25,392 nt of DNA from Candidatus Polarisedimenticolia bacterium (GCA_035764505.1 DASTZC010000038.1:1-25392); one strand, 5' to 3'; counted from the first letter of the stretch, positions 4,729 through 23,849 are shown. A program made the numbers and translations. The notes: generated by a model from the letters alone, not told the origin.

Positions 4729-5567
4729 CAGGCCCCTTCGCGCGCCGGCTTGCGGGTGAAGCGGAGCAGGAACAGGAAGATCGAGAACGAGAGGACGGCC
4801 AGGACCGCGGCCACGGCGTTGGCCGTCTCGATCTGGCCCGCCTCGAACTGGGCGAAGATGAACAACGGGGCGGTCTGCGTCTGCATCCTCAGGTTGCCCG
4901 ACACCATGGCCGTGGCGCCGAACTCGCCGAGCGAGTGGGCGAAGGTCAGCAGCGTGCCGCTGAACAGGCCCCCCTTGAGAGCGGGCAGGATGACGTGCAC
5001 GAAAGTGCGCAGGCGCCCGGCCCCCATGGTGTAGGCCGCCTCCTCATAGGTGATCTCCAGCTCGTCCAGCACCGGCTTCACCGCCCCGAGCATGTACGGA
5101 AAGGTCACCAGGACGTGCGCCAGGAAGACGCCGAACGGCGCGAAGATCGGCTTGAATCCGAGAGGGACCAGGTAGCGCCCGAGCAGGCCGATGGGGCCCC
5201 ACAGGAGGATGAGCGAGGTCCCCATGACCACGGTCGGAATGGCCACCGGCAGGTTCACCAGGATGGTCAGAGGGCCGCGCCCGGGGAAGCGGTGTTTGGA
5301 GAGGACGTAGGCGGTGAAGGTCCCCACGAAGGCATTGGTCACGCTGGTCCACAGGGCGATCCAGAGCGACATGCGCAGCGCGAACTGGGCGTCGGGCAGA
5401 CGCAGCGTGGTGGCAAAAGTGCTCCAGCCGCCGCGGCCCGCGAACACGAAGATGGCGACGATCGGCAGGATCAGGAGCGGCGTGAGAATGGCCCAGAGGG
5501 CCCCGATGGTGAGGCGGTGGGTGAGGGTCCTGGCTCGTGTTTCGACCATCGCCTCGGAATCGATCAA
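4728..5567 (-). CDS. ABC transporter permease of the CysT/CysW/ModB type (sulfate or oxyanion importer membrane subunit).
   Basis: The 279-aa product has multiple transmembrane helices and shows the CysT/CysW-type pattern, including the region TANAVAAVLAVLSFSIFL and its neighbours. The ORF-track start at 5567 is a TTG that overlaps the binding-protein stop. An in-frame ATG at 5549 (MVETRAR...) is an alternative start. Confidence 0.8.
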   Translation of the reverse strand: MIDSEAMVETRARTLTHRLTIGALWAILTPLLILPIVAIFVFAGRGGWSTFATTLRLPDAQFALRMSLWIALWTSVTNAFVGTFTAYVLSKHRFPGRGPLTILVNLPVAIPTVVMGTSLILLWGPIGLLGRYLVPLGFKPIFAPFGVFLAHVLVTFPYMLGAVKPVLDELEITYEEAAYTMGAGRLRTFVHVILPALKGGLFSGTLLTFAHSLGEFGATAMVSGNLRMQTQTAPLFIFAQFEAGQIETANAVAAVLAVLSFSIFLFLLRFTRKPAREGA

Positions 5568-6619
5568 CGTCCCAGCTCCTTCAGCACCTGGCCTTTCCAG
5601 ATTTCCTCGTACACCAGGGCGTCGGCCGCTTCCCAGCCGCCCATGTCATCCACCGTGAACGTGCCGGTGAGGGGCGGGAGCAACGCGTTGGCCGAGTCCA
5701 GCGACGGGTTCACCGCCGAGCGGTAGCCGTGCTTGACGAAGAGCTTCTGCGCCTCGTCGGAGAAGAGAAAATCGCGCAGCGCCATGACCAGGTCGTGATC
5801 CCGGGCCCGGACGTTGCGATCCACCACCACGACCGGATGCTCGGAGTAGATGGTCTTCTTGGGACGGACGATCTCGACCTTCTCCTCCTGGCCCTGAGGG
5901 ACCAATCCCTGCTGCTCGTAGGTGATCAGAGCGTCGCCCAGGCCGTTCTCGAACTGGGTCCTCGCGCCGGCGGCCGAAGGAGACTGTCCGACCACGTTCT
6001 TCCAGATCCCGAGCAGCTGCGCCTTGCCGAGCTCGCGGTCTGCGGGATCGGTGCCGCCCAGATCGGAGACGGCCGAGCCGTACTCGGCCAGGATCGACCA
6101 CTTGGCCGCGCCGGAGGTGAGCGGATCCGGATGGATGACGCCGATCCCCGGGCGCGCCAGGTCGGCGAATGAGGCGATCCTCTTGGGGTTCCCCTTGCGC
6201 ACCAGGATCACGAACGGGGTGTGGTTCACCACGCCGTGCGCGGGGAACTCCCGCCAGTCGGTGGTCACGGCGCCGGCTTTCTTCAGCCGCAGGGCGTCCC
6301 CCTCGTGCGACAGGATCGCCAGCACCGCGGGGGCCCCCATGATGATCTGGTTGGTGATCGTTCCGGAGCCGGAAAAGGACGAGGTGAAGGTCAGCTCTTC
6401 GCCGGTCTTCTCCTTCCAGTGCCGGCTGAAGGCGGGGAAGACATCCTGGTTCATCGCTTCGCCCAGGATGCTGAAGCCATACACGACGACGACGCGGCGG
6501 TGCGGCTGGACGTGGCGCGCTTCCTGGATGGAGGGCCAGGCAAGGTAGACGGCGACGGCGAGGAGAACCACGACGAACGAGACGATCCCGGCGGTACGGC
6601 GGAACCTCGCGCTTGCCAT
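5564..6619 (-). CDS. Sulfate/thiosulfate-type ABC substrate-binding protein (Sbp/CysP family).
   Basis: The 351-aa product starts with an N-terminal transmembrane or signal anchor (IVSFVVVLLAVAVYLAW). Blocks AFSRHWKEKTG, SSFSGSGTITNQI, FVILVRKGNPKRI..DL..PG..VIHPDPLTSGAAKWSILAEYG and GLGDALITYEQQ line up with the conserved blocks of E. coli Sbp (AFSAHWKQQTG, GGSGKQA, VFLVRKGNPKQI, PNPKSSGGARWNYLAAWG, GIGDVLIAWENE). Confidence 0.8.
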   Translation of the reverse strand: MASARFRRTAGIVSFVVVLLAVAVYLAWPSIQEARHVQPHRRVVVVYGFSILGEAMNQDVFPAFSRHWKEKTGEELTFTSSFSGSGTITNQIIMGAPAVLAILSHEGDALRLKKAGAVTTDWREFPAHGVVNHTPFVILVRKGNPKRIASFADLARPGIGVIHPDPLTSGAAKWSILAEYGSAVSDLGGTDPADRELGKAQLLGIWKNVVGQSPSAAGARTQFENGLGDALITYEQQGLVPQGQEEKVEIVRPKKTIYSEHPVVVVDRNVRARDHDLVMALRDFLFSDEAQKLFVKHGYRSAVNPSLDSANALLPPLTGTFTVDDMGGWEAADALVYEEIWKGQVLKELGR

Positions 6620-11566: not shown

Positions 11567-12925
11567 TTGGCAACCGCGTCCCATCCGCCCGGATTCGTAA
11601 CTACCCATGCGCAGCCTCCCGCCGGAAAGAAAGGGGGGCGGCCGCTCCACACCAAAATCTTCTACGGCATGGCGGCGGGGACCGCTGCCGGAATCGCCGC
11701 CAATCTCCTTTGGGGCGACTCTCCGGCGCTGCAGAGCTTCATCACCAACGTCAGCTATCCCCTCGGACAGATCTTCCTGCGTCTCATCTTCATGGTGGTG
11801 ATCCCGCTGGTGGTCAGCGCCCTGATCGTCGGCGTGGCGGAGCTGGGGGACCTGAGGCGGCTCGGCCGCGTCGGGCTGAAGACGCTGGGCTTCACGATCG
11901 TGCTCAGCGCCATCTCGGTCCTGATCGGGGTGGCTCTGGCCAACCTCATCCGGCCGGGGGAGGGGCTTTCGGAAGAGTCACGCGCCGGGTTGTTGGAAGT
12001 CGTGGGAAAGCAGCCATCCGATCTGGGGAAGCCGCCCGAAGCCAAGAAAGGCCTGCAGATCCTTCTCGACCTGATTCCCCAGAATCCGGTGGAGGCGATG
12101 GTCAACGCCTTCCGGGGAGACATCCTGGCGGTCATGGTTTTCGCGCTGTTCCTGGGCGTCGCCTTGACGCGGGTCGAGAAGAAGCTGGCCGACCCGCTGC
12201 TGACCTGGCTGCAGGCGCTGTTCGAACTCTCGATGCAGGTGATCGGGATGGCCATGAGCCTGGCTCCCTACGGCGTCGCCGCGCTGCTGTTCACGCTGAT
12301 GGCGCGCTCGGGACTGGACGTGCTCCTGCGCCTGGCGGCCTACGTCGTGACCGTCCTGCTGGGTCTCGCGATCCACCAGTTCATCACCTACTCGCTGATG
12401 CTGCGCTTCATGGCGGGAACCTCGCCCCTGTTCTTCTTTTCGCGCATCCGCGAGGTGATGCTCACGGCGTTTTCGACTTCCTCGAGCAATGCCACGCTTC
12501 CCACCTCGCTGCGCGTGGCGGAGCAGGAGCTGGGGGTGCCGCGCCAGATCGGCGGCTTCGTCCTGACGCTGGGCTCCACCCTCAACCAGAACGGGACGGC
12601 GCTGTACGAGGGGATCACGGTCCTCTTCCTGGCGCAGTTCTACGGCGTCCACCTCACGCTGGCGTCGCAGGTCACGGTGGTTCTGCTCTCCATTCTGGCG
12701 GGCGTCGGCACCGCCGGTGTTCCCGGCGGCTCGCTGCCGCTGGTGATGGCGCTGCTGGCCACCGTCGGGGTTCCGGCAGAGGGGATCGGGATCATCCTCG
12801 GGGTGGACCGGATCCTGGACATGTGCCGGACCGTACTGAACGTCTCGGGAGATCTGGTGGCCGCCGTCTTCGTGGCCCGCAGCGAGGGAAAAACGCTCGA
12901 GATTCACACCGGATCGGCCCGCTAA
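11567..12925 (+). CDS. Dicarboxylate/amino acid:cation symporter (DAACS family; GltP/DctA-like).
   Basis: The product is 452 aa. LHTKIFYGMAAGTAAGIAANLL is the typical transmembrane-helix-1 start of DAACS proteins. Family-typical blocks are present, including TLPTSLRVAEQELGVP (the serine-rich HP1 region), TLNQNGTALYEGITVLF and VSGDLVAAVFVA. The start is a TTG at 11567 with GAGGG 5 nt upstream. The alternative ATG at 11666 lacks an SD. Confidence 0.85.
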   Translation: MATASHPPGFVTTHAQPPAGKKGGRPLHTKIFYGMAAGTAAGIAANLLWGDSPALQSFITNVSYPLGQIFLRLIFMVVIPLVVSALIVGVAELGDLRRLGRVGLKTLGFTIVLSAISVLIGVALANLIRPGEGLSEESRAGLLEVVGKQPSDLGKPPEAKKGLQILLDLIPQNPVEAMVNAFRGDILAVMVFALFLGVALTRVEKKLADPLLTWLQALFELSMQVIGMAMSLAPYGVAALLFTLMARSGLDVLLRLAAYVVTVLLGLAIHQFITYSLMLRFMAGTSPLFFFSRIREVMLTAFSTSSSNATLPTSLRVAEQELGVPRQIGGFVLTLGSTLNQNGTALYEGITVLFLAQFYGVHLTLASQVTVVLLSILAGVGTAGVPGGSLPLVMALLATVGVPAEGIGIILGVDRILDMCRTVLNVSGDLVAAVFVARSEGKTLEIHTGSAR

Positions 12926-12947
12926 GCCCTCCATTCCCTGTGCTAGG

Positions 12948-15900
12948 ATGCGTCCCGTCATGTCGCGATCCCGCATTATTCTCGTCGCTGTCCTGGCCCT
13001 CGGCGCCGCCTACCTCGCCGCTTCTTTCCGCCACTTCGAGGAAAAGCCCTGCTTTCGGGTGGTCGACGCGCCGCTTCTGGGCTCTGCTTCCCGCCTGGTC
13101 CAGCCGGGCTGGCGCTTCGTGCCGCGCTTCCTGGGGCGTGTCAGTGAATACCCCACCGGCGAGGTGAAGCTGCGGGACGACCTGACGGGAGCCGCGGCGG
13201 CGCGCAGCCGCGAGGGGGCCAAGGTCGACGTCGAGGCGGAGCTGACCTACTCGATCCCGCCCGAGGGAGTGCTCGCGCTGCACCGGGAGCACGGTCCCCG
13301 CTTCGAGACGGAATGGCTTTCCGAGAAGCTGCGCTCGCGCACGGCGGAGCGCATCGCGTCGGTCTCCTACGATCTGGTGCGCAACCGCGACCCGGAGCTG
13401 GCCAGCGGCGTCCGGGGCGCCCTCAAAGCGGATGTGGAGTCCTCGGGCATCCGGCTCGGCGCGCTGCGGATCTTCGAAGTGGCCGCGGTCGGGGAAGCCT
13501 CCGGGGAGATCCTGAAGGTCCCTGCGCAGCCGCTGGCGAAGAAGGTGGTGCTCGTCGGTCTGGACTCCTTCGACTGGCGCATCGCCGATCCCCTGCTCAG
13601 GCAGGGGAAGATGCCGAACCTCGCGGCGCTCATCGCCCGCGGCACGCGCGCCAATCTGCGCACCTTGAGGCCCATCCTCTCGCCGGTCATCTGGACCAGC
13701 ATCGCCACCGGCGTGAAGCCGTCGCGCCACGGCATCGTCGATTTCGTCGTGACTTCGCGCGACACCGGGGCCCTCGTGCCGGTCACCAGCGCCATGCGCC
13801 AGGTGCCGGCGCTCTGGACGTTGCTGAGCCGCCAGGGGCTGGAGGTCAGCGTGGTCGCCTGGTGGGCCACCTGGCCCGCGGAGACGGTGCGCGGCAGCGT
13901 CGTCACCGACCGCGTCGCCTTTCAGCTCTTCGAAGACTCGATCAAGCAGGACTGGCGCAGCACCGATCCGGAGAAGAACAAGGGGAAGACCTACCCGCCG
14001 GAGCTGTTCGACGCGGTGCGCGACAAGATCCGGGTGCCGGCCGAGGTCACCGATGAGCAGGTGGCCTGGTTCCTGCCGGGGGGCCGCTTCCCGGCGAATC
14101 TGACGGCGCCGCAGGCCGATCTCCTGAACCGCTTCCGCACCGTCATCGCCGCCGGAGAGACCTACCATGCGGTCGCCCTGGATCGGCTGCGCCGTCAGGA
14201 CGCTGCCCTGCGGATGTTCTACTACGAGGGGCCCGACACCACCTCGCACCTCTTCATGAAGTACCGGCCGCCGCTGCTGGCAGGGACTTCGCGCCAGGAG
14301 ATGGAGCTGTTCGGCGGAATCATCGATCGCTACTACGAGCGCCAGGACCGCTTCCTTGGCGAGATTGTGGAGGCGGCCGGCAGCGACTGCGATTTCCTGG
14401 TGGTCTCCGACCATGGCTTCAAGTCGGACAACAACCGTCCGCCGAATTCCGATTCGACCATCGAGGCGGGGAAGGCGGCCGACTGGCACACGCCGGTCGG
14501 GGTGTTCGTCGCCGCCGGTCCGGACTTCAAGGCAGCCTCCGAGCTGGGCGCCGCCTCCGTCCTGGACGTGGCGCCGACGGTGCTGACCCTGTTCGGGATG
14601 CCGGTGGCGCGCGACATGGACGGACAGCCACTCTCGGAGGCCTTCAAAGCGGACTTCCTCACCGCCCATCCGGTGGCCTGGATCGACTCCTACGGCGGTG
14701 TGCGCCAGCAGGAGGCGGAATCGGCGGCGGTCGCCTCGGCGGGCGATGCCGCGATGATCGAGAAGCTGCGCTCGCTCGGCTACATCGGCGAGGAGCGCCT
14801 GACGGCGACCAACAACCGCGGCATCCTGGCGCTGGAAGACGGCGACGTCGACTCCGCGATCGGCAGCTTCGAGAAAGCGCTGGGCTCCGGTGGGGAGATC
14901 GAGGAGATGGCGCTGACCAACCTGGCGCGCGCCTGGCTGGTGCGCGGCGACCTGGTCAAGGCCCGGGAATATGCCGAGAAGGCGATCGCCACGGGATCCG
15001 GCAACAAGGTCGCAATGACCATCCTTTCCGGTATCCAGGTCAAGGAGGGGGACACGGCGGGCGCCGAGAAGAGCCTGCGCGCGGCGCTGGACATCGATCC
15101 GACCCTCGTCCTGGCCCATTCCAAGCTCGGCGAGCTGTACCAGAAGCAGGGAAACCTGGACGCCGCGCTGGCGGAGTTCCACAAGGTGATCGACATTGCC
15201 CCGCTCAGCCCCATCGAGTTCAACAACATCGGCAACATCCATCGCAAGCGCGGCGAGCTGGACCAGGCGATGGAGGCTTACCGTGATGCGCTGCGCTGCG
15301 ATGCCCAGTACATCGGCGCCTACAACAATCTGGGGCTCTGCCTGCAGGAGAAAGGGAAGCTGGACGAGGCGGAGGCGCTGTACTCCAAGGCGCTGGCGAT
15401 CCGCCCCGAGAACCCGATCCTGCGCAACAGCCTGGGCACGCTGCGCGCTCTCAAGGGGGACAAGGAAGGGGCGATTGCCGAATTCGACCGGGCGACGAAG
15501 GCCGATCCCGACTGGCCGGTGGCGCAGGGAAACCTTGCCACGCTCCTGTTCGAGACCGGCAAGCTGGATCAGGCCCGCCCCGCGTTCGAGCGCTGGGCCA
15601 AAGCCGAGCCGAAATCGACCGAGCCGGTCCTCGGGCTGGGTCTGCTCAGCCTGATGCAGAAGCGCCGTGAGGAGGCGGTCGGCTACTTCCAGCAGGCGCT
15701 TTCCCTGGACCCCGGCAGCTTCCGGGCCCACGTGGCCCTGGGAGAGATTCTCCTGAAGGAAGGAAAGCTGGACCAGGCGCAATCTCACCTGGAGAGCGCC
15801 GCCCGCATCGAGCCCGACAGCGCGCGCGTCTACGGCTCGCTGGGAAGGATCTACATGCAGCGTGGCCGCAAGCAGGAGGCCGTTCAGGCCTTCCGCCACT

Positions 15901-15962
15901 CGCTCCGCCTGCAGCCCGATCAGCAGGAGATCAGGTCCCTCCTCTCGGGCCTGGGCGGCTGA
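12948..15962 (+). CDS. Multidomain protein: N-terminal transmembrane anchor plus SPFH/band-7-like domain, an alkaline-phosphatase-superfamily core of the type I phosphodiesterase/nucleotide pyrophosphatase type, and C-terminal TPR repeats.
   Basis: The product is 1004 aa. Residues 1-~190 have a transmembrane helix (IILVAVLALGAAYLAA) followed by an SPFH-like stretch (VQPGWRFVPRFLGRVSEYPTGEVKL...VDVEAELTYSI). Residues ~195-600 have VVLVGLDSFDWRIADPLLRQGKMPNL...LSPVIWTSIATGVKPSRHGIV (metal-binding D, nucleophile T/S region) and VVSDHGF (the DHG motif), typical of the AlkP/ENPP core. Residues ~620-1000 contain at least eight TPR-like 34-aa repeats (A..A...Y..AL..DP patterns). Confidence 0.8.
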   Translation: MRPVMSRSRIILVAVLALGAAYLAASFRHFEEKPCFRVVDAPLLGSASRLVQPGWRFVPRFLGRVSEYPTGEVKLRDDLTGAAAARSREGAKVDVEAELTYSIPPEGVLALHREHGPRFETEWLSEKLRSRTAERIASVSYDLVRNRDPELASGVRGALKADVESSGIRLGALRIFEVAAVGEASGEILKVPAQPLAKKVVLVGLDSFDWRIADPLLRQGKMPNLAALIARGTRANLRTLRPILSPVIWTSIATGVKPSRHGIVDFVVTSRDTGALVPVTSAMRQVPALWTLLSRQGLEVSVVAWWATWPAETVRGSVVTDRVAFQLFEDSIKQDWRSTDPEKNKGKTYPPELFDAVRDKIRVPAEVTDEQVAWFLPGGRFPANLTAPQADLLNRFRTVIAAGETYHAVALDRLRRQDAALRMFYYEGPDTTSHLFMKYRPPLLAGTSRQEMELFGGIIDRYYERQDRFLGEIVEAAGSDCDFLVVSDHGFKSDNNRPPNSDSTIEAGKAADWHTPVGVFVAAGPDFKAASELGAASVLDVAPTVLTLFGMPVARDMDGQPLSEAFKADFLTAHPVAWIDSYGGVRQQEAESAAVASAGDAAMIEKLRSLGYIGEERLTATNNRGILALEDGDVDSAIGSFEKALGSGGEIEEMALTNLARAWLVRGDLVKAREYAEKAIATGSGNKVAMTILSGIQVKEGDTAGAEKSLRAALDIDPTLVLAHSKLGELYQKQGNLDAALAEFHKVIDIAPLSPIEFNNIGNIHRKRGELDQAMEAYRDALRCDAQYIGAYNNLGLCLQEKGKLDEAEALYSKALAIRPENPILRNSLGTLRALKGDKEGAIAEFDRATKADPDWPVAQGNLATLLFETGKLDQARPAFERWAKAEPKSTEPVLGLGLLSLMQKRREEAVGYFQQALSLDPGSFRAHVALGEILLKEGKLDQAQSHLESAARIEPDSARVYGSLGRIYMQRGRKQEAVQAFRHSLRLQPDQQEIRSLLSGLGG

Positions 15963-16082: not shown

Positions 16083-17084
16083 ATGGGAATCTCCGTCGAT
16101 ACCGGGAGCTTCCGGCTGCAAGGGTGGCGCATCGCGCTGTTCGCCACGGTCGCCTTCACCGTGATGACCAGTTTTTTCTCGTCGCGGACAGGGGCCGGCA
16201 CCTGGTGGATTCTCGACCTGGCCGCCGCCGTGGGGGGAGGCTTCATGGTTCGCAGCGGCTTCCGGCAGCTCCGCAAGAAGAACATGATCGAGAACGTTCC
16301 CACCTCGGCGATCCGGTCGGTTGCGATGGGGCTCGCGGAGATCCATGGAATGGCCTGTGCCGAGGCGGCGCTGTCGGCCCCGTTGTCGGGGGAGCGCTGC
16401 CACTACTTCCGGTACCGGGTGGAAGAAGAACGGACCCGCAGCAAAGGGGGCAAGGAGTGGGTGACGGTCGATCACGGGACATCGAACGTGCCGTTCCCGC
16501 TCGAGGATTCCACCGGGAAGATACAGGTCGACCCGCAAGGCGCCGACGTCAGCCTGCAGCGCGACTATCGCCGGGTCGACGCAGGCGAGGGATGGTTCGG
16601 TCGACGCAAGCGCTACTCCGAGTGGCGCATCGATCCACGCGACCGCCTCTACGTTCTCGGGACGGTGTCGAAGCAGGGCGATTCCGTGGAGACGCGGGGC
16701 GCCGGGCTGAGCGACCGGCTCCGCCGGCTCAAGCGCGACCCGGCCGCGGTGAAACGCTTCGATCTCGACGACAGCGGTGCGCTGGATGAGCAGGAATGGG
16801 CCGGGGCGGTGGCCGTGACGAAGCAGGAGCTGCTGCAGGAGGAGACGGCGAAGCAGGCCGGCAATCCGCAGGCGGGCCTGTTCATTGGAGCGGGCGACAC
16901 CGAGTCCACCTTCATGATCTCGGATCGCGACGAGACGAGCATCACCCTGCGGCTCGCCTGGAAGGCGATCGCGGGCGTGGGGCTCGGCGGTGCAGTCCTG
17001 CTGGGGATGTCGGTCTCGATCCTGGGGCGCTTCGGAATCCTGCGGGGAGGCTGGAGCTTCCCCTGGGCGGTATTCTTCGGATAG
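16083..17084 (+). CDS. GIDE-domain membrane protein (bacterial E3-ligase-like GIDE family).
   Basis: The product is 333 aa. It has two N-terminal transmembrane helices and the central conserved CHYFRYRVEEER...EWVTVDHGTSNVPFPLEDSTGKIQVDP...RYSEWRIDPRDRLYVLGTV block characteristic of GIDE domains. A C-terminal transmembrane helix follows. Its stop lies 9 nt before lemA. Confidence 0.6.
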   Translation: MGISVDTGSFRLQGWRIALFATVAFTVMTSFFSSRTGAGTWWILDLAAAVGGGFMVRSGFRQLRKKNMIENVPTSAIRSVAMGLAEIHGMACAEAALSAPLSGERCHYFRYRVEEERTRSKGGKEWVTVDHGTSNVPFPLEDSTGKIQVDPQGADVSLQRDYRRVDAGEGWFGRRKRYSEWRIDPRDRLYVLGTVSKQGDSVETRGAGLSDRLRRLKRDPAAVKRFDLDDSGALDEQEWAGAVAVTKQELLQEETAKQAGNPQAGLFIGAGDTESTFMISDRDETSITLRLAWKAIAGVGLGGAVLLGMSVSILGRFGILRGGWSFPWAVFFG

Positions 17085-17093
17085 GAGGAGACG

Positions 17094-17666
17094 ATGGCGA
17101 TCGTCATGCTGATCGGCTTTGGGATCCTGGTCGTGATCACGGCGGGATACCTCGCCGGCATCTACAACCAGCTCGTGCAGATCAAGGTGAACGTCGACAA
17201 GTCGTGGGCCAACATCGAGGTGCTGGAGAAGCAGCGCTACGACGAGATCCCGAAGCTGGTGAAGGTGTGCGAGGGATACATGCAGTACGAGCGCGGCACG
17301 CTCGAGAAGGTGATCGCGGCCCGCAGCAGCTTCCTGCAGGCCAGAGGGCCTGGGGAGATGGCCCAGGCGGGCACCGAGATGGCGGGGGCGCTGAAGAGCC
17401 TGTTCGCGCTGGCCGAGGCCTATCCGGACCTCAAGGCGAACCAGAGCTTCACGCAGCTGCAGCAGCGGGTCAGCGCGCTGGAGAACGAGATCGCCGATCG
17501 CCGCGAGTTCTATAACGAGTCGGTGACCATCAACAACGCGCGCATCCAGCAGGTTCCCTACGTCTTCCTGGCGGGAGCGCTTTCGATGTCGCAGCGCGAG
17601 ATGTACAAGATCGCTCCCACCGAGAAGGTGTCGCCGGAGATCAAGTTCGCGATGCCGGCGGCCTGA
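17094..17666 (+). CDS. lemA: LemA family protein.
   Basis: The product is 190 aa. It has an N-terminal transmembrane helix, then LVQIKVNVDKSWANIEVLEKQRYDEIPKLV...RSSFLQA...ALAEAYPDLKANQSFTQLQQRVSALENEIADRREFYNESVTINNARIQQVPYVFLAGAL, which matches LemA throughout. AGGAGG lies 3 nt upstream of the ATG. Confidence 0.85.
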   Translation: MAIVMLIGFGILVVITAGYLAGIYNQLVQIKVNVDKSWANIEVLEKQRYDEIPKLVKVCEGYMQYERGTLEKVIAARSSFLQARGPGEMAQAGTEMAGALKSLFALAEAYPDLKANQSFTQLQQRVSALENEIADRREFYNESVTINNARIQQVPYVFLAGALSMSQREMYKIAPTEKVSPEIKFAMPAA

Positions 17667-17730: not shown

Positions 17731-18741
17731 CTATTTGCCCCCGCCGAACTTGAAAGCCACTCCGGCGTGCAGCGAGTTGAAGGCGATGCTGTCGCGGCCG
17801 CGATTGTCGGCGGGCCCGATGGCGAAGTGGCCCCCTTCGTTCTGGGGTATGGGGTCGGTCACCAGCCCGTCCCAGTTGGACATCGCATAGCCGACCCAGA
17901 AGTCGAGGGCCCCGTAGCTCCAGACCGCTTTCAGATCGTAGTCGCGGATCTCGCCCCGGATGTTGTCATCCGATCCCGTGAACTCGTCGTCTGCCGGGCC
18001 GCTCTGGGCGAAGCTCTGGAAGGAGTTGCCTTCCGTGTCAGCCATCAGGAACGACCAGGTGGCGCTTCCCGCCATACCGAAATGCTCGGTGAAGCCCCAT
18101 TTCACCTTGGCGCCCAGCTTGAAGCCCAGTGCGTCGGACTCGAAGTGCTTCCCCTGGCGGTAATAGTTGCCGTAGTTGTCGGCCCCCTCGAAGGTCTGGT
18201 CCTCCTCGTAGGAAGCGACCCGCAGCCCCGCCAGCCAGCCGATCGTGACTTTCTTGCCCGGCTCGAAGGAGCGGATGTAGTCGATGTCGATCGTGTCGGC
18301 CTGGACCTTTCCGGTCGTGCTGAAAGTGACGCCCGCCGGATTGTAGATGTACATGCCGCCGGAGTTGCCGTAGCCGAAGATGGTCGGATAAACCCCGCCG
18401 AGCAGGGTGTTCTCCTCCTTATCCTCGTTGTCGAAGCCCCACCACGAGACCTGCAGCTTGCCCATCTCGCCGAAGCCGTAGCCGAAGGTGATCTTCGCGG
18501 TGAAGTCGGAGTCGTTGTCGAGGACGAGACGATCCATCGTGGTCGTCGTGCCGAAAACGACGTGGTTGGCATAGTGCTGATCGAGGCTGGTGGGCTGGGT
18601 CATGCCCAAATCGAGCGCGACGTAGAAACCCTTGAAATCGGTATCGTCGGCCAGAGCTGGAGACAGGCCGAAAGAGAGGGTGAGGAGCCCGACGGCGAGC
18701 CACAGGACGCGGCCGGCCGGGACCCCGGTGCGAATCTTCAT
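17731..18741 (-). CDS. Outer-membrane beta-barrel protein (putative porin, MOMP-like), paralog 1.
   Basis: The product is 336 aa. A signal peptide (MKIRTGVPAGRVLWLAVGLLTLSFGLSPALA) is followed by alternating amphipathic beta-strand patterns rich in G/Y/F/W. The C-terminus is ...AGVAFKFGGGK, with an aromatic near-terminal strand. Confidence 0.65.
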   Translation of the reverse strand: MKIRTGVPAGRVLWLAVGLLTLSFGLSPALADDTDFKGFYVALDLGMTQPTSLDQHYANHVVFGTTTTMDRLVLDNDSDFTAKITFGYGFGEMGKLQVSWWGFDNEDKEENTLLGGVYPTIFGYGNSGGMYIYNPAGVTFSTTGKVQADTIDIDYIRSFEPGKKVTIGWLAGLRVASYEEDQTFEGADNYGNYYRQGKHFESDALGFKLGAKVKWGFTEHFGMAGSATWSFLMADTEGNSFQSFAQSGPADDEFTGSDDNIRGEIRDYDLKAVWSYGALDFWVGYAMSNWDGLVTDPIPQNEGGHFAIGPADNRGRDSIAFNSLHAGVAFKFGGGK

Positions 18742-18862: not shown

Positions 18863-19882
18863 TCAGGGAGAGGTGAAGCGCTGCCGGCCGAAGCGCCAGA
18901 GCAGGCCCACCTCGAAGCTCGAGAAGGATAAGGAATCGTCGACGGAGCTCTCGCCGACCCCTTGGAACCCTACGGCCGGGACTTGATCGCGTGGGAAGCC
19001 GTTCCACTGGGAGTTCGTCAGCCCCAGGGAGATGTCGACCGGGCCGGCCGACCAGACGCCGCGCAGCTCCAGGTCCAGGATGCTGCCGCTGAAGTTGTCG
19101 TCTTTTCCGGAGCGCGACTCACTGAGCCCGAGCTCGACAATCCTCTGGCTGGCTTTGCCTTCCGAGGTCCCGATGAGGGACGAATAGGCCATTCCGGCAC
19201 GCAGGCTGAAGTGCTGGCTCAGATGAAAATCTCCCGCCGCGCCCACCCGGATGCCGATGGCGTCGACGTCCAGGCTCTTGTCCTGAAGGTAGGTGTAGTA
19301 GCCGTCGAAGCCCTCGAAAGACTGTTCCTGCTCGTAGCTGGCCGTACGCAATCCCGCGAGCCATTTGAGACCGAAATGCTCGGTGATCTCGAGGGTGTCG
19401 GCGTAATCCAGATCCCAGGTGGAGGCTTTGATGTTGAAAGTTCCGGCGAAGCTCACCGGCAGCGTCGAGTCGCAACCGCCGGAGCTCTGGTTGCACAGGT
19501 AGAAAGAGCCGTAATAACCGTAGCCGAAAAGCTGTGGGTAGACGGTGCCGGTCTGGGTGAAGTTCTCCGCATCGTCGTTCTCGAAGGTCCAATACGAGAC
19601 CTGGATGCGGCCATGGTTCGGGCCGAACGCATAACCCAGCCCGGCGCCCCATGCCAGGTCGGCGTCGTGCTCGAGTGAGATGCGCTCCGACCGGGGGGCT
19701 GAGACGAGGGCGAGAGGCTGATCCACTCCGGTAGGCTGCGCCAGCGCCAGATCCAGCGCCAGCAGCCAGCCGCGCGCATCCTCGGCGTGCGACGCTCCCG
19801 TGAACAGGAAAAACAAGGAAAGACAAAGCCATGCGTGGCGCATGGCGCTCGAGCGGCAACGTTTTTTCGCTTGGGTGGTCAC
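18863..19882 (-). CDS. Outer-membrane beta-barrel protein (putative porin, MOMP-like), paralog 2.
   Basis: It is a paralog of 17731..18741; compare GLKWLAGLRTASYEQEQSFEG with TIGWLAGLRVASYEEDQTFEG, and QVSYWTFENDD with QVSWWGFDNED. The most likely start is the GTG at 19882, 5 nt after AAGGAG, giving MTTQAKKRCRSSAMRHAWLCLSLFFLFTGASHA-ED, a signal peptide. The six-frame ORF extends to 19888. Confidence 0.65.
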   Translation of the reverse strand: MTTQAKKRCRSSAMRHAWLCLSLFFLFTGASHAEDARGWLLALDLALAQPTGVDQPLALVSAPRSERISLEHDADLAWGAGLGYAFGPNHGRIQVSYWTFENDDAENFTQTGTVYPQLFGYGYYGSFYLCNQSSGGCDSTLPVSFAGTFNIKASTWDLDYADTLEITEHFGLKWLAGLRTASYEQEQSFEGFDGYYTYLQDKSLDVDAIGIRVGAAGDFHLSQHFSLRAGMAYSSLIGTSEGKASQRIVELGLSESRSGKDDNFSGSILDLELRGVWSAGPVDISLGLTNSQWNGFPRDQVPAVGFQGVGESSVDDSLSFSSFEVGLLWRFGRQRFTSP

Positions 19883-20026
19883 GCACACTCCTTCCGGAAC
19901 GGACCTCCCCCGTCGGGGGCGCCCTTTAATAATCCGAGCCCACGGGGGAAGTCAAGTCTGATCTTGGATTTGGCCAGCTAACCCCGCCTGCGGGAAGCTC
20001 GCGAGGAGGAGCGGAAGCCTGCGGGA

Positions 20027-20064: not shown

Positions 20065-22509
20065 TCAGCGGAAGTCGTAGCGGACCAGGAACCCGACGAT
20101 CTGGTTGGTGTAGTCGAGGAAATCGAGGCCCAGGTAGACTGCCTCAGAGGAGCCGGGATCGTTGCCCGGGTCCCCCATGTAGGGGTCGTTGAAATCGGAG
20201 GCGAAGTTGTCCTCGTCCCACTTCTCGTACCAGTAGCGGAACATGACGTCGAGGTTCTTGCGCACCGAGCAGGTCAGCCCGAGCTGGGCGATCGCCAGGG
20301 TGGTCTTCACCTCGGGGAACTGGGTCAGGGTGGTGTCGCCCGAAGCCGCGCCGCCCGGGACGAAATCGGTGTGGATCAGGTCCGTTCCGCGCGACCAGGA
20401 GAGATCGCCGTTCAGCTGCCACTTGCGGCTCTCGGAGAAGAAGGTCTGGAACGAGACGTTGGCGGTCTGGTATTTGTCGGTGGTGTCGGAAGACCAGTCG
20501 TCCAGGGGATTGTCGGTGCCGATGCCGCCGGTGACGTTGCGGTAGCGGCTGGCCAGGGCGTACTCCCGGTTCTCCCAGGTGTAATCCCCCGAAACGCTCC
20601 AGCGATTGTTGGGCACGAAGCTCGCGCCCACCGAATAAGTCTTGATCTCGTCGTCGATGCGGCCGGCGAGGAGGATGTCGTAGGTCTCGGGGATCGTGTC
20701 GAAATCCCGATCTTCCTGGATGGTGATGTGGTCGCCGATCTTCTTCCCCGTGTTCGGGTCGAAGAACTCGTCCTTGGTCACCGTCGCCTCGGCGAACAGG
20801 CTGACGGTCGGGCTCAAGGCCAGGTCGAGGAGCAGCGCCCCGTAGTCGCGGTCGCGATCGGTCCAGATGAACTTCCGCTCCCCTTCGTTCGCGGCGGCGA
20901 TGTTGGCCTCGCCGATCGGGAAAGAGGCCTCTTCGAAGTATTCGGCGTTGTATTCGTCCGCCCGGCGCTCCTGGTGCCGGGCCGTGACCCGGATGGTGAG
21001 CATGTCGTTGACGTCGAAATCGAGCGCCGCCTTCAGCGTGTCCTCGTCCGATTCGGTCACCGCGGCGATGTTGCGGTCCATTCCCTCGCGATCGTAGGCG
21101 ACGATGATGTCCATCCAGCTCGTGGGACGGAAGCCGAGGGAGGCCCCCAGGTTGGTCTTCTCGTAATCGAAAGGCACACTTTGCCGGGCGAGACGGTTCG
21201 TGGTGGCCCCGCAGGCGTTGGCGTTGCCGCACATGGTGAACTGGTAGTCGGTGGCGACGTAATCGTCGAAAACCAGGCTGTGCGTCTTGTTATCGTAGTT
21301 GTAATCGCGGAACCAGGCGGCGTAGCGAAACCAGGAAAGCGGCCGCCCCGAGACGTCGACCGACCCGAGGTTCATCTCGTACTTGCCGTCGAGGCTGTTG
21401 GCGGGCAGCGGCGCCGCGGTCGCCAGGAGAAGCGAGTTGCTTGTCTTGGCAAGGAACGGGTCGTCCTGGGTCGTGGTGCTCTGGTAGTAGGTGGCGTTGA
21501 TCCGGCTGTGGCCGGCGAAGCTGGCGCCACCGTAAAGCCTCCAGGCGAACAGGTCGCTGTTGCTCCAGGGAGACATGCGCATGAAGGCAGGGTTGGCGGT
21601 ATTGGCGTTGACGGGCACTTCGGTCAGGAACTGCTGATCGTCCCAGGTGACCGAGGTCGTGCCGGTGGTGAACTCGGAGGCGATGACGGCTCCCCCCACG
21701 TTGAAGTGGGGTGCCACGTATTCCGCCCCTACCCGCGCCTCGTCGGTCTTGAACTCGAGGGGTGCCGCGACCTCGGCGGGATCGAGGGCGAAGTACATGC
21801 CGAGGGACTGCGGAAAGAAGCCTCCCCGTCGCTCCCGCTGCCCCCCCAGGTCCACGATCCAGTTCCGCGTAGGGGTGAAGTTGAAGTTGAAGGCGGCCAC
21901 CTGCCGCTGCCACCCCACCTGCGTGTCCTGCGCGTTCTGCTGGATGGCGCTCTTGATCAGCGCTCCCTTGGTACCGGCGTCCCACTCGCCGTCGGCGGGC
22001 GCGGTGTCGACGCTGTTGGGCGCCGCCTGCACCGCGCTCTGCAAGGCGTCATCGAGCGTGAAGATGGCCCCTTCCTGCCGGGCATAGAGCTGCTTGGCGC
22101 GATCGGACCAGCGCCGCGGGTTCTCGGTCCAGGCGAAGGAGAACTTCCAGAGGTCCTGCTTGCCGGTATCGAAGAAGATGCGCTGATCGAGCTGCGAGAC
22201 GTCGCGCGCCGCCAGATCGAAGTAGTAGCCGGCCTTCGGCTCCCAGCTGAACTGCAGGAACTCCAGAACGAAGCCGTTGGGGACTTCGCGATATTCGTTG
22301 AACTTCGCCGAGTTGTTGGGGTCCTCCTGGAGGTACCACTCCGGGCCCCCCACGACCTCCCCGCTCACCTGGGCGTCCTCAGGCGGGGGGGTCTCCTCCG
22401 GCGTCACCGGCTTGGGAGGCTCGGACTGCGCGGCGGCGGGAATCATCGAGGCGACGAGCACCGCCGGGAGGATGGCAACCAGCCAGGCCCGCTTCGGGAA
22501 TGTCTTCAT
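20065..22509 (-). CDS. MtrB/PioB/MtoB-family outer-membrane beta-barrel (porin component of a porin-cytochrome electron conduit).
   Basis: The product is 814 aa, with a signal peptide (MKTFPKRAWLVAILPAVLVASMIPAAAQ), very high Y/W/F/D/N/T content and alternating strand patterns. Its size matches PioB/MtoB (~800 aa). The gene is 9 nt downstream of a decaheme cytochrome gene and has an RBS, GGAGGAAGC-ATG. The C-terminal strand is ...VGFLVRYDFR. Confidence 0.75.
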   Translation of the reverse strand: MKTFPKRAWLVAILPAVLVASMIPAAAQSEPPKPVTPEETPPPEDAQVSGEVVGGPEWYLQEDPNNSAKFNEYREVPNGFVLEFLQFSWEPKAGYYFDLAARDVSQLDQRIFFDTGKQDLWKFSFAWTENPRRWSDRAKQLYARQEGAIFTLDDALQSAVQAAPNSVDTAPADGEWDAGTKGALIKSAIQQNAQDTQVGWQRQVAAFNFNFTPTRNWIVDLGGQRERRGGFFPQSLGMYFALDPAEVAAPLEFKTDEARVGAEYVAPHFNVGGAVIASEFTTGTTSVTWDDQQFLTEVPVNANTANPAFMRMSPWSNSDLFAWRLYGGASFAGHSRINATYYQSTTTQDDPFLAKTSNSLLLATAAPLPANSLDGKYEMNLGSVDVSGRPLSWFRYAAWFRDYNYDNKTHSLVFDDYVATDYQFTMCGNANACGATTNRLARQSVPFDYEKTNLGASLGFRPTSWMDIIVAYDREGMDRNIAAVTESDEDTLKAALDFDVNDMLTIRVTARHQERRADEYNAEYFEEASFPIGEANIAAANEGERKFIWTDRDRDYGALLLDLALSPTVSLFAEATVTKDEFFDPNTGKKIGDHITIQEDRDFDTIPETYDILLAGRIDDEIKTYSVGASFVPNNRWSVSGDYTWENREYALASRYRNVTGGIGTDNPLDDWSSDTTDKYQTANVSFQTFFSESRKWQLNGDLSWSRGTDLIHTDFVPGGAASGDTTLTQFPEVKTTLAIAQLGLTCSVRKNLDVMFRYWYEKWDEDNFASDFNDPYMGDPGNDPGSSEAVYLGLDFLDYTNQIVGFLVRYDFR

Positions 22510-22518
22510 GGCTTCCTC

Positions 22519-23457
22519 CTACCGCATGAACCGGACGCCGGACGGATGGTTGGAGCCATGAATCTGCGAATGGCAGTTCATGCACCCCTTGTCGAACATC
22601 CGGCTGTTCGGAAAGAACTCGGGCGCCGAGCTGGCGTCGGAGTAAGGCTGCGTCGGATGGCGGGTCTCGTCGTGGCACTGCTGGCAGAGTCGCGGCAGCT
22701 TGGCGACCAGCAGCCGCGGATGGAGCGAGCCGTGCGGGTCGTGGCAGTTGGCGCAGTTCTCCTTCACCGGCGGGTGCTCCCAGAGGAACGGGGCCCGCTT
22801 CTCGGCGTGGCAGGAGAAGCAGTTCTCGACCACCGAGTTCTGGCGCAGCATGGACGGGCCCGGCCCGCCGTGCACGTTGTGGCAGGACGAGCAGGTCATC
22901 TGCTTCTCGCGCAGCGGCATGTGGGCCGAGCGCATGAGCGACGCCTTGCGCCGCAGGTGGCAGCTGGTGCAGGTGTCGAACTCGGTGGCCTTGGCGAACA
23001 GGAAGGGCGCCGGCTCCCCCTGCTGGTGGATCTTGTGGCAGTTCAGGCAGGACAAATTGCGCGTCTCGTGCGGGCTCCCGAGCCAGCGGGTGTGTTCTTC
23101 GCCGCGCCCGTGGCAGGTGAGGCAGACGGCGTTCAGCTCCGTGGCGGAGAGCTTTCCGGGATTGCGGATGTCCTTCTTGTCGCCCGACTCCATGTGGGCC
23201 GTGCCGGAGCCGTGGCAGGTCTCGCAGGCATGGTGCCCGTCCCAGTCGGCGATCCCCGTCTTGCCGTGCGGGTTGAGCTTGAAGTTCTTCGCCTGGTCTT
23301 CGTGGCAGGCCCCGCAATCCGCCATCTCCGCCTTGACCGTGGGCGGCGGCGCCGCCGCCGTGCCTTCCTGTCCCTTGCTCGGGGATGACGAGACGGCCAC
23401 GATGCCCAGGAGGATCAGGGGCACGCCAGCCAAGTCTAACCATCGGCACATGCGCAT
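22519..23457 (-). CDS. Periplasmic decaheme c-type cytochrome (MtrA/DmsE/MtoA/PioA family).
   Basis: There are ten CXXCH motifs: CGACH, CETCH, CLTCH, CLNCH, CTSCH, CSSCH, CFSCH, CANCH, CQQCH and CMNCH. The product is about 312 aa, matching the MtrA/MtoA size. The signal peptide is MRMCRWLDLAGVPLILLGIVAVSS, the start is the ATG at 23457, and GAGGAG lies 7 nt upstream. The six-frame ORF begins at a GTG at 23472. Confidence 0.85.
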   Translation of the reverse strand: MRMCRWLDLAGVPLILLGIVAVSSSPSKGQEGTAAAPPPTVKAEMADCGACHEDQAKNFKLNPHGKTGIADWDGHHACETCHGSGTAHMESGDKKDIRNPGKLSATELNAVCLTCHGRGEEHTRWLGSPHETRNLSCLNCHKIHQQGEPAPFLFAKATEFDTCTSCHLRRKASLMRSAHMPLREKQMTCSSCHNVHGGPGPSMLRQNSVVENCFSCHAEKRAPFLWEHPPVKENCANCHDPHGSLHPRLLVAKLPRLCQQCHDETRHPTQPYSDASSAPEFFPNSRMFDKGCMNCHSQIHGSNHPSGVRFMR

Positions 23458-23849
23458 CGCTCGGCTCCTCACAGCTTGCCGGATAGAGAGGGTGACTTGG
23501 GTTGGATGGAACAGCTTGAATTGTGCGTCAAGGCCCTGCCGATCGCCGGAATCGAGCGGTTGGGACGAGACTGAACAGACAACTGCAACGAATGAGCGTC
23601 TGTTGTGACCTTGCTTCCTGCAAACCCTGGGGGAAAGAGCGGGGTGAATCCTAGGATCGGAACGTGAAGCTTGTCAAACGATTTCTTGTGAGGAGTGAGG
23701 AAGGCTCGAAGAGAGATCAGCGGCTTCCCGCCTTCCCCACGGCACTTTTCCGCGCTCCTTCCTCTCTCCTCCAGCAAAATCTTCGCTTCCCGCACGCCTG
23801 ATTTGAGTCCCGGATGAGGATCAAAACCCTTGCGGGAGCAATCCGCCTG

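Follow-up and report, generated by a model that had tools for sequence, protein, structure and literature searches.

The 25,392-nucleotide stretch of DNA analyzed here (the window) encodes on its plus strand a real, conserved but uncharacterized Acidobacteriota protein. A single genuine gene combines one transmembrane (TM) helix, an SPFH domain, an ENPP-type catalytic core of the alkaline-phosphatase (AlkP) superfamily and a TPR array, as the first-pass annotation of this DNA had proposed. We favor, with moderate confidence, the interpretation that the product is a signal-anchored envelope enzyme, in which the TM helix and SPFH module would tether an NPP-like phosphodiesterase that carries a TPR arm. 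The features of the gene, with residues numbered from the first ATG, are:

12948..15962, plus strand: whole gene, 1004 codons counting from the first ATG (ORF list and translation)
12966..13022, plus strand: TM helix, residues 7–25 (AF2 helix 7–25; mean of 2.06 in a 19-residue Kyte-Doolittle window)
13026..13478, plus strand: SPFH/Band-7 domain, residues 27–177, a β-rich part followed by an α/β core
13479..13544, plus strand: linker of ~22 residues (178–199), non-helical, pLDDT 52–75; the first AlkP β-strand starts at 200
13545..14672, plus strand: NPP-like catalytic domain of the alkaline-phosphatase superfamily, residues 200–575
13563..13565, plus strand: D206, metal ligand, motif GLDSFDW; invariance of at least 97% over 105 sequences, and invariant in A2 as well
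13680..13682, plus strand: S245, predicted nucleophile, invariant; placed by HMMER alignment to 2gsn_A opposite the Thr of SLTFPNH (Xanthomonas NPP)
13743..13745, plus strand: F266, invariant Phe where NPPs have their phosphoryl-binding Asn (HMMER alignment to 2gsn_A)
13905..14201, plus strand: insertion in the AlkP core, specific to the family and mostly helical, ~residues 320–418 (helices at model positions 133–227)
14235..14249, plus strand: D430 and H434, metal ligands, motif YYEGPDTTSH, invariant
14409..14414, plus strand: D488 and H489, metal ligands, motif VVSDHGF, invariant
14487..14489, plus strand: H514, metal ligand, motif AADWHTP, invariant
14673..14801, plus strand: connector, residues 576–618, partly disordered (pLDDT below 50 at model positions 398–406)
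14802..15923, plus strand: TPR array, residues 619–992, ten canonical 34-residue repeats (653–992) and one degenerate repeat (619–652)

The gene is one unbroken ORF of 1004 codons, running from the ATG at 12948 to a stop codon that ends at 15962. A second ATG at 12960 (M5) has AGGA on its 5′ side (12944–12947). Its product of 1000 residues is exactly HEU5179658.1, from a Candidatus Polarisedimenticolia MAG, and the only version located in the collection by an exact-sequence look-up is the one starting at 12960. The N-terminus MSRSR is common to HEU5179658.1 and the homologue P0001, which is 94% identical. Based on the AGGA and these two N-termini, ATG 12960 is probably the true start, giving a 1000-residue product. 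The deposited name, “tetratricopeptide repeat protein”, hides two of the three modules from annotation-based surveys; the Band_7, Phosphodiest and TPR matches all lie above the curated Pfam cut-offs in the domain scan that had been suggested for this protein. An antisense ORF of 1035 residues (12792–15899) overlaps the gene and is taken to be a GC-rich shadow ORF, since all domain and homologue support sits in the plus-strand frame.

More than 100 full-length homologues, with identities from 94% down to 38%, share the same layout, and the gap fraction over residues 26–200 is at most 0.06 in 105 aligned sequences. The SPFH-AlkP-TPR arrangement thus cannot be put down to misassembly or a frameshift, the possibility that the first-pass annotation had singled out for a check. 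Fusion of separate SPFH and AlkP-TPR genes through such an error has a negligible probability and was rejected, as the full-length architecture occurs in more than 100 independent assemblies and ~45 species-representative genomes, the homologues agree in their domain boundaries and in a partly conserved linker, and an identical protein has been deposited independently (HEU5179658.1).

An Arg-rich tail (R2, R7 and R9) lies ahead of the TM helix, which is predicted to be a signal anchor with a cytoplasmic N-terminus. The helix is located directly N-terminal of the SPFH domain. Band_7 (PF01145) matches residues 44–175, scoring 30.4 bits when the whole protein is searched and 34.4 bits with the isolated N-terminus (cut-off 23.6), the domain contains the canonical PGWRFVP motif, and the AF2 model has the SPFH α/β fold. 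Thus, a band-7/SPFH-like domain behind a single TM helix, as first described for this ORF, is borne out by both the profile match and the structure prediction.

The domain stops where the coiled coil of canonical SPFH proteins begins. The CC1/CC2 (“flotillin”) coiled coil and the C-terminal cap are absent; the AF2 model has no helix in residues 178–199, and the linker takes the place of CC1/CC2. This distinguishes the protein from HflK/HflC, prohibitin, stomatin, erlin, flotillin and QmcA, and the canonical 12–24-mer SPFH cage cannot form in the same way here. HflK/HflC are the periplasm-facing SPFH subfamily, to which the nearest stand-alone SPFH relatives of this domain have a weak affinity. 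However, residues 1–200 gave no NCBIfam match to the HflK/HflC equivalogs (TIGR01933/TIGR01932) at E 0.01 or better, the C-terminus consists of an enzyme and TPRs, and Pfam scans of the 20 window ORFs found no FtsH, NfeD or second SPFH gene. FliL has a periplasmic SPFH-like domain without a coiled coil, yet it is a far weaker structural match than the true SPFH proteins; it is also flagellar and has no fused enzyme, whereas the gene described here has no flagellar context. As the coiled-coil region of the canonical cage is missing, the SPFH module may be just a membrane-surface anchor, and the earlier description of the protein as membrane-microdomain-localized is not supported.

The catalytic domain matches Phosphodiest (PF01663) over residues 200–500 with 98.7 bits against a cut-off of 23, the match covering only profile positions 1–231 of 342. 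Structure comparison of the model identified an AlkP-superfamily fold with NPPs as its nearest neighbors, and ENPP7 and ENPP6 are among the top fold matches. The ENPP/AlkP-type assignment is thus upheld by the profile score and by metal ligands conserved in sequence. The resemblance to solved NPPs is remote in sequence, with a PDB search giving marginal matches only (E ~0.01), and ~260–300 of the 441 modeled residues align to any solved AlkP-superfamily structure.

All six ligands of the bimetallo site are present (D206, D430, H434, D488, H489 and H514), as assigned by motif and a partial HMMER alignment, and each of them, together with S245, is at least 97% invariant among 105 sequences. The nucleophile is an invariant serine, which is chemically equivalent to the Thr of the NPP family yet unlike it; Thr is used by Xanthomonas NPP, ENPP4, ENPP6, ENPP7 (alkaline sphingomyelinase) and PF01663. 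Consequently, of the “D...T” and DHG motifs originally noted, the latter stands (D488-H489-G490), whereas the former is in fact D206...S245. A second departure from NPPs is at their phosphoryl-binding Asn, which we take to be N111 in Xanthomonas NPP: HGIVHN of the NPP aligns with HGIVDF here, and the invariant Phe266 replaces the Asn. Since the six metal ligands and Ser245 are invariant, the catalytic domain is probably an active two-metal enzyme, although its chemistry may differ from that of NPPs because Phe266 replaces their Asn. The third difference is the additional ~100-residue helical insertion, which contains the invariant motifs TDRVAFQLF and GKTYPP (invariant residues D321, R322, Q326, L327, F328, G346, K347 and P350) and is a candidate substrate cap. 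Fusion to SPFH and TPR modules also sets the protein apart from NPPs.

The alternative term “sulfatase-like” had been used for this enzyme. No formylglycine motif (C/S-x-P-x-R) is found at the nucleophile, where the sequence is S245-P-V-I-W, and the 25 best Pfam families for the protein do not include the Sulfatase family PF00884. We rejected a sulfatase assignment based on the absence of this motif and the NPPs being the nearest folds. LtaS, EptA/MCR-1, EptC and PbgA are members of PF00884 with a 5-TM anchor. These membrane-tethered AlkP-superfamily transferases act on lipid head groups, but the protein described here has one TM helix, an SPFH domain and a core that resembles NPPs rather than LtaS or EptA. 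PbgA/YejM also provides the precedent for a different role, with the AlkP domain as a non-catalytic binding module and the whole protein purely a scaffold or receptor. We consider this very unlikely, as the invariance of the nucleophile and the six metal ligands (at least 97%, in sequences down to 38% identity) is the pattern of an active enzyme.

The connector that follows the catalytic domain holds a conserved helix, EKLRSLGYIG, in which L607, G611 and Y612 are invariant. The C-terminal region has a strong TPR signal (~residues 620–1000; Pfam TPR_1 and TPR_2, E 1e-53 to 1e-56). Ten repeats are in perfect register, each with 6–8 of the 8 consensus positions satisfied, and a register scan found 70 of 88 consensus positions satisfied at offset 619 only. 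With ten to eleven contiguous TPRs, the long C-terminal array is as initially reported. It resembles the long TPR superhelices of the OGT N-terminal domain and of the periplasmic scaffolds PilW, PrsT, BcsC and PgaA, and its best PDB sequence matches are the OGT TPRs (E 1e-45) and consensus TPR proteins. The TPR region also has NCBIfam similarity to PrsT and PilW, below their cut-offs. In contrast to these systems, no β-barrel or glycosyltransferase domain is present, and no equivalog cut-off is reached.

Relatives were identified by the AlkP signatures WWATWPA and TDRVAFQLF followed by a TPR array, all of which the protein itself possesses; 202 were confirmed, and scanning 80 loci with domain HMMs bears out the AlkP+TPR layout. 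The SPFH module is missing in ~30 of these 80 related loci, in agreement with the earlier remark that AlkP+TPR proteins exist without it. The accompanying remark that the SPFH fusion is unusual is correct outside the Acidobacteriota; within the phylum, it is a common conserved family comprising two old paralogous clades. Of the complete paralogues, 30 lack an SPFH-like N-terminus; in 29 of these, a lipobox, a signal peptide or a TM-like hydrophobic segment lies directly upstream of the AlkP domain instead. A lipobox was detected in at least 16 of the 30 by regular expression and in three more (L052, L071 and L083) by eye. These exported proteins, from Acidobacteriota and a few MAGs labeled Binatia, Deltaproteobacteria or Myxococcales, are 650–870 residues long and have the same AlkP core (35–45% identity), catalytic residues and C-terminal TPR array. 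What sets them apart is the anchor, which is a lipobox, a signal peptide or a TM helix alone rather than the TM helix and SPFH domain.

Several N-termini required individual consideration. The long N-termini of L032, L053, L078 and L083 are over-called GC-rich ORFs whose real starts are at lipoboxes. Those of L044, L049 and L067 gave sub-threshold Band_7 matches (E 0.059, 6e-4 and 0.079, respectively) and are probably divergent SPFH domains; L059 gave no Band_7 match. L029 and L048 combine a lipobox with a ~110-residue domain that has no Pfam match. In a rough, unbootstrapped neighbor-joining tree built on the AlkP domain, which gives no direction to anchor gain or loss, proteins with SPFH, lipoprotein, signal-peptide and TM-only N-termini are intermingled. 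AlkP+TPR would be the core unit, probably the ancestral one, with an interchangeable membrane tether in the form of a TM helix and SPFH domain, a TM helix alone, a lipoprotein anchor or a signal peptide. The replacement of the TM helix and SPFH domain in 29 of 30 paralogues points to a periplasmic enzyme with an exchangeable anchor.

In the mechanism that we propose, the Arg-rich tail would be cytoplasmic, the single TM helix would cross the inner membrane, and everything after it would be periplasmic, as in HflK/HflC. We consider this anchoring and orientation quite likely. The periplasmic location is suggested by the exported paralogues, the charge flanking the TM helix and the weak HflK/HflC affinity of the SPFH relatives; the evidence on topology itself consists of homology to the exported paralogues at 35–45% identity and the flank charge. 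A clear TM-like segment is seen in 67 of 105 family members, and in these the net charge is +2.25 on the N-terminal flank versus −0.27 on the C-terminal flank. Counts of Lys plus Arg, which are ambiguous alone, are higher on the N-terminal side in 26 of the 67 sequences, equal in 15 and lower in 26. This near equality on the two flanks is one argument for the opposite orientation, with the N-terminus outside and the body cytoplasmic, as in stomatin, flotillin and QmcA; the AlkP domain would then be kept close to the inner leaflet and work in the cytoplasm as a phosphomutase or phosphohydrolase. Such an enzyme is suggested by the name used at JGI, “AlkP superfamily phosphohydrolase/phosphomutase”, the Ser nucleophile and weak sequence matches (E 0.01) recall the cytoplasmic iPGM, and no conserved cysteines indicate periplasmic disulfides. 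We regard a cytoplasmic body as unlikely.

With the body placed in the periplasm, the SPFH module would keep its membrane-hugging fold and provide a rigid pedestal on the membrane surface, rather than building a cage or microdomain, a role that we think plausible on balance. The flexible linker of ~20 residues would carry the catalytic domain. From the active site evident in the sequence, we infer both activity and substrate: the enzyme would attack a phosphodiester, or perhaps a phosphomonoester or phosphonate, by way of a covalent phospho-Ser intermediate. We would guess that its substrate lies close to the membrane, for example a lipid head group or envelope polymer, and is not a free nucleotide, given the membrane tethering and the presence of ENPP7 and ENPP6 among the top fold matches. 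The ligand of the superhelix of 10–11 TPRs would be a partner or substrate, either protein or polymer.

Alternatively, the SPFH module could still oligomerize, forming a ring at the periplasmic surface of the inner membrane in the manner of FliL or with the TPR arm, in place of a coiled coil, driving assembly. A membrane patch studded with many phosphodiesterase-TPR units would result, equivalent to the microdomain-localized enzyme of the first-pass annotation. This is conceivable, though rather doubtful, as the CC1/CC2 helices and C-terminal cap that hold canonical cages together are lacking, and the 20 window ORFs include no NfeD or FtsH partner. In addition, relatives repeatedly have a lipobox, signal peptide or TM helix instead, and this replacement by simple anchors argues that the SPFH module is dispensable for the core function. 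A more speculative and rather unlikely proposal is that the SPFH fold organizes the membrane surface without a coiled-coil cage, as a FliL-like ring or a lipid patch of the periplasmic leaflet, and that the TPR arm recruits a partner, thereby concentrating a new NPP-like clade, with a Ser nucleophile and no Asn, on a lipid or envelope-polymer substrate. If true, the protein would be the first SPFH scaffold to bear an enzyme, and SPFH membrane association would be separable from cage assembly.

In recent cryo-EM structures (PDB matches from 2022–2026), SPFH proteins appear as cages built from coiled coils, with membrane patches and client proteases inside. A protein that has kept the SPFH fold, dropped the coiled coil and gained a fused enzyme offers a natural experiment on the SPFH core alone at the membrane surface, since the position of this module is taken in close relatives by a lipoprotein anchor, a signal peptide or just a TM helix. 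The AlkP domain likewise represents an unstudied branch of the alkaline-phosphatase superfamily beside the NPPs, with its Ser nucleophile, Phe for Asn and 100-residue helical insert. Acidobacteriota are a dominant, poorly cultured phylum of soils and sediments, and this branch, which is widespread among them, could bear on organic-phosphorus turnover or envelope remodeling. Literature searches on SPFH with alkaline phosphatase and TPR, on COG3379 and on SPFH domain fusions found nothing relevant.

The 20 window ORFs, the called genes around two homologues and the flanking ORFs of 80 loci, compared by all-against-all clustering, include no conserved operon partner, so the protein would appear to act as a self-contained unit. 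The clustering revealed synteny at the lineage level only. In the clade of the protein, a Legionella_OMP-like porin is encoded a few genes away in 13 loci, and the sister clade has the gene order dnaE-metK-ahcY-[gene]-...-lptFG-...-parBA.

The target gene is an uninterrupted ORF of 1004 codons on the + strand, running from an ATG at 12948 to a stop codon ending at 15962 according to both the ORF list and the translation. The second ATG, at 12960, is likely the true start; an AGGA sequence lies 5′ of it at 12944–12947, the 94% identical homologue P0001 begins MSRSR, and an exact-sequence look-up in the public collection retrieved only the 12960-start version (HEU5179658.1), named in its record only as a TPR protein. 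Residue numbers here are counted from the ATG at 12948. A Pfam scan found the Band_7, Phosphodiest and TPR domains of the first-pass annotation, all above curated thresholds.

Features of the window protein (+ strand product; SPFH, Band_7 membrane-scaffold domain; AlkP, alkaline-phosphatase superfamily)
Residues 7–25, TM helix (AlphaFold2 model)
Residues 27–102, strands of the SPFH module (AlphaFold2 model)
Residues 44–175, Band_7/SPFH match (PF01145; whole-protein score 30.4 bits, cut-off 23.6)
Residues 105–166, helices of the SPFH module (AlphaFold2 model)
Residues 169–177, closing strand of the SPFH module (AlphaFold2 model)
Residues 178–199, unstructured low-confidence linker of ~20 residues (AlphaFold2 model)
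Residues 200–500, Phosphodiest match (PF01663; 98.7 bits, above the curated threshold)
Residues ~320–418, mainly helical insertion in the AlkP domain, with invariant motifs TDRVAFQLF and GKTYPP
Residues ~620–1000, very strong TPR signal, above the curated Pfam threshold

The same annotation asked for a check on whether a frameshift or misassembly had merged neighbouring genes. A search with residues 1–615, leaving out the TPR array, retrieved >100 full-length homologues of ~1000 aa each (identity 38–94%), almost all from Acidobacteriota MAGs and most commonly named Polarisedimenticolia; the precomputed Pfam lists of many contain PF01145, PF01663 and TPR together. In an alignment of 105 homologues the gap fraction is ≤0.06 over residues 26–200, and the N-terminal module is therefore present in every aligned member. 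The recurrence of the layout and the nearly gap-free N-terminal region exclude such an artefact, whose residual probability we consider negligible, and the fusion is genuine. A ~1000-aa ORF (12792–15899, − strand) does lie opposite the target gene, owing to the ~65–70% G+C of the region, and a second of similar length (20371–23388, + strand) lies opposite real genes and has no Pfam match. Both resemble the shadow ORFs that are common in GC-rich DNA and could mislead scans based on ORF length.

The proposal that the N-terminus is an SPFH domain is borne out by sequence and by model. Scanned alone, the N-terminal 200 residues match Band_7 with 34.4 bits, and an AlphaFold2 model of residues 1–204, built with a 56-sequence alignment, has a pLDDT of 92. 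In canonical SPFH proteins (HflK/C, flotillin, stomatin, prohibitin and erlin) the domain leads into CC1/CC2 coiled-coil helices and a C-terminal cap, through which the cage is assembled. These elements are absent after the SPFH domain in the AlphaFold2 model, and the first β-strand of the AlkP domain begins at residue 200, straight after the linker. The N-terminal module thus has a genuine SPFH fold but not the coiled coil of its superfamily. That the SPFH scaffold forms a ring is a doubtful though not negligible reading, given the loss of the cage-assembling segments.

When 1.84 billion representative proteins were searched with a profile restricted to the SPFH module, its own family ranked first, followed by ordinary stand-alone Band_7 proteins of 270–500 aa; among the 150 best matches, an enzyme directly follows the SPFH core only in the window protein's family. 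All nine stand-alone relatives that were scanned match Band_7 strongly, and in each the chain runs well past the SPFH match. Eight show only sub-threshold affinity to HflK/HflC, the ninth (P0147) having no NCBIfam hit; the window protein itself has no equivalog-level match to HflK/HflC. Two of these nearby proteins are further non-standard SPFH architectures: P0165 (463 aa), among the nearest stand-alone relatives, carries a PDZ domain N-terminal to a canonical Band_7/SPFH protein, and P0147 (606 aa) contains three Band_7 stretches.

The model of residues 190–630 (pLDDT 87, pTM 0.90) places the AlkP domain with the nucleotide pyrophosphatase/phosphodiesterase (NPP) family, as do the Pfam match and the metal ligands. 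Each of the residues D206, S245, D430, H434, D488, H489 and H514 is conserved in ≥97% of the 105 aligned sequences. By this invariance and the alignment with Xanthomonas NPP, the metal site is complete and the domain is probably an active enzyme. The annotated D...T and DHG motifs survive in part: D206 and the whole of DHG (D488-H489-G490) are kept, but the nucleophile position is held by S245, which HMMER aligns with the nucleophilic Thr (SLTFPNH) of Xanthomonas NPP. The invariant F266 likewise aligns with the Asn of HGIVHN, so that by sequence the domain departs from the NPP family at two defining residues. Set against the conservation of the catalytic residues, a pseudoenzyme acting as a scaffold is a very improbable reading. 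The sulfatase-like alternative is dismissed, as the C/S-x-P-x-R motif is absent at the nucleophile, where the sequence is S245-P-V-I-W. Only ~260–300 of the 441 modeled residues superpose on any known structure; the part that does not is the insertion at ~320–418, a candidate substrate cap in the model.

A register scan of the TPR arm gave a sharp optimum at residue 619, with 70/88 consensus positions compared to ≤33 at neighbouring offsets. One degenerate repeat precedes ten canonical 34-residue TPRs that run unbroken through residues 653–992. In the PDB, the closest sequences are those of engineered consensus TPR proteins and of the TPR superhelix of OGT. NCBIfam hits (PrsT, PilW and others) stay below their cut-offs without exception and reflect TPR composition only.

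When the AlkP profile was scanned against one genome per GTDB species, at least 202 AlkP+TPR relatives were confirmed, of which the best 80 loci were analyzed with HMMs made for each module. These come from Polarisedimenticolia, Thermoanaerobaculia, Holophagales and Terriglobia, with a few MAGs that bear the labels Binatia, Deltaproteobacteria or Myxococcales and a few labelled Patescibacteria or Cryosericum, the latter two suspected to be mislabelled; none is a cultured strain. Despite their labels, four loci (L009 and L010, "Patescibacteria group"; L007, "Candidatus Cryosericum"; L008, "Candidatus Binatia") show the complete SPFH-AlkP-TPR layout and are 63–67% identical to the AlkP domain of the window protein. 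The labels probably result from mis-binned or mislabelled MAGs rather than from horizontal transfer.

The full layout (~1000 aa) occurs at ~45 of the 80 loci and AlkP+TPR only (650–870 aa) at ~30. Among 30 complete SPFH-less forms, a regular expression found a lipobox after a hydrophobic stretch in 16 (e.g. LLLLACGRGE, LGLLAGCARRP, LALAGCGKGG), and three more were recognized by eye (L052, L071 and L083). A signal-peptide-like or TM-like hydrophobic segment is present in 10/30 (e.g. AAASPAQA|AKP), and L042 alone has neither. These N-termini indicate that the AlkP+TPR body is an exported module, as judged from sequence. In L029 (ORF residues ~100–240) and L048 (residues 1–154), a lipobox is followed by a ~110-residue domain without a Pfam hit, before the AlkP core; this domain could be either a fourth type of N-terminal module or what is left of the SPFH α/β core.

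In a rough neighbour-joining tree of AlkP domains, without support values, SPFH-bearing proteins dominate two large clades, and lipoprotein, signal-peptide and TM-only forms are interleaved with them and also basal. The membrane tether therefore looks interchangeable over evolutionary time. Several genomes carry two or three AlkP+TPR loci each (L006+L061 in MAG JBGPLZ01, L033+L056, L047+L057+L070, L022+L052), sometimes one per SPFH-bearing clade, as for L006 and L061, and sometimes an SPFH form beside lipoprotein or signal-peptide forms, which suggests that the paralogues have sub-functionalised according to how they are anchored.

The export signals of the paralogues, the Arg-rich tail preceding the TM helix of the window protein, and the HflK/C leaning of its nearest stand-alone SPFH relatives point to a probable HflK/C-like topology, with the N-terminus cytoplasmic and the body periplasmic. 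The flank charges of the 67 family members in which a TM segment is clear agree (net +2.25 on the N side, −0.27 on the C side), although K+R counts alone give a tie between the flanks. The inverted topology, with a cytoplasmic body, is unlikely.

With its body outside, the window protein would be a signal-anchored periplasmic enzyme, in which the SPFH module would serve as a membrane-surface pedestal, the AlkP domain would transfer phosphoryl groups via a phospho-Ser245 intermediate, and the TPR superhelix could bind a partner or polymeric substrate. Our guess is that the substrate lies near the membrane, for instance a lipid head group or envelope polymer; it is prompted only by the tethering and by the presence of ENPP7 and ENPP6 among the top fold matches, and the data fit phosphate scavenging from soluble diesters just as well. 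By analogy, the protein would work as a three-way hybrid, with an NPP-type ecto-phosphodiesterase set between an HflK/C-type membrane anchor and a TPR scaffold. Each of the three folds is well known, and joining them makes a domain fusion, not a categorically new protein. Unusual and testable are the coiled-coil loss, the direct fusion to an enzyme and the interchangeability with a lipid anchor. Full-text literature searches turned up nothing on this architecture or its AlkP subfamily. The architecture is solid and mildly surprising for SPFH and AlkP-superfamily specialists; function, substrate and oligomeric state are inferred.

The target gene lies 23 bp downstream of an SDF-family symporter gene, and a promoter and terminator scan around it was uninformative. 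Elsewhere the window carries genes for transporters, an aminotransferase, porins and a porin-cytochrome module.

Other features of the window
2803–4728, 4728–5567 and 5564–6619, − strand, ABC importer operon: SBP_bac_11 binding protein, BPD_transp_1 permease and ATPase with a CysA C-terminal domain
16083–17084, + strand, GIDE-domain protein (PF12483, E 8e-11)
17094–17666, + strand, LemA-family protein (PF04011, E 5e-45), 10 bp from the upstream GIDE gene
17731–18741 and 18863–19888, − strand, two tandem Legionella_OMP-like outer-membrane proteins (PF05150)
20065–22509, − strand, MtrB/PioB-type outer-membrane β-barrel (PF11854, E 2e-67)
22519–23472, − strand, multihaem cytochrome with paired CXXCH and NrfB-like and MtrC/F-like domains, adjoining the barrel

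The neighbours in the window are not conserved beside the target gene. GIDE and LemA, just downstream, look like a two-gene membrane module, and the pair is missing at both of the other homologue loci that were inspected gene by gene. The genes around a 70% identical orthologue differ, and a 42% identical relative is flanked by ahcY and sugar-nucleotide genes. Clustering of flanking ORFs over the 80 loci gave lineage-level synteny only: in the window's clade, 13 loci have a Legionella_OMP-like porin, the sole recurrent neighbour, at a distance of a few genes from the target, and in the sister clade ~20 loci share the housekeeping block dnaE-metK-ahcY-[gene]-...-lptFG-...-parBA. Neither NfeD, FtsH nor another dedicated partner was found among the 20 window ORFs scanned or in the clustered flanks. 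Together, the barrel and cytochrome of this Polarisedimenticolia MAG resemble a porin-cytochrome module that would serve extracellular electron transfer. The ATPase of the ABC importer is fused to two universal-stress-protein (Usp) stretches, an unusual C-terminal extension.
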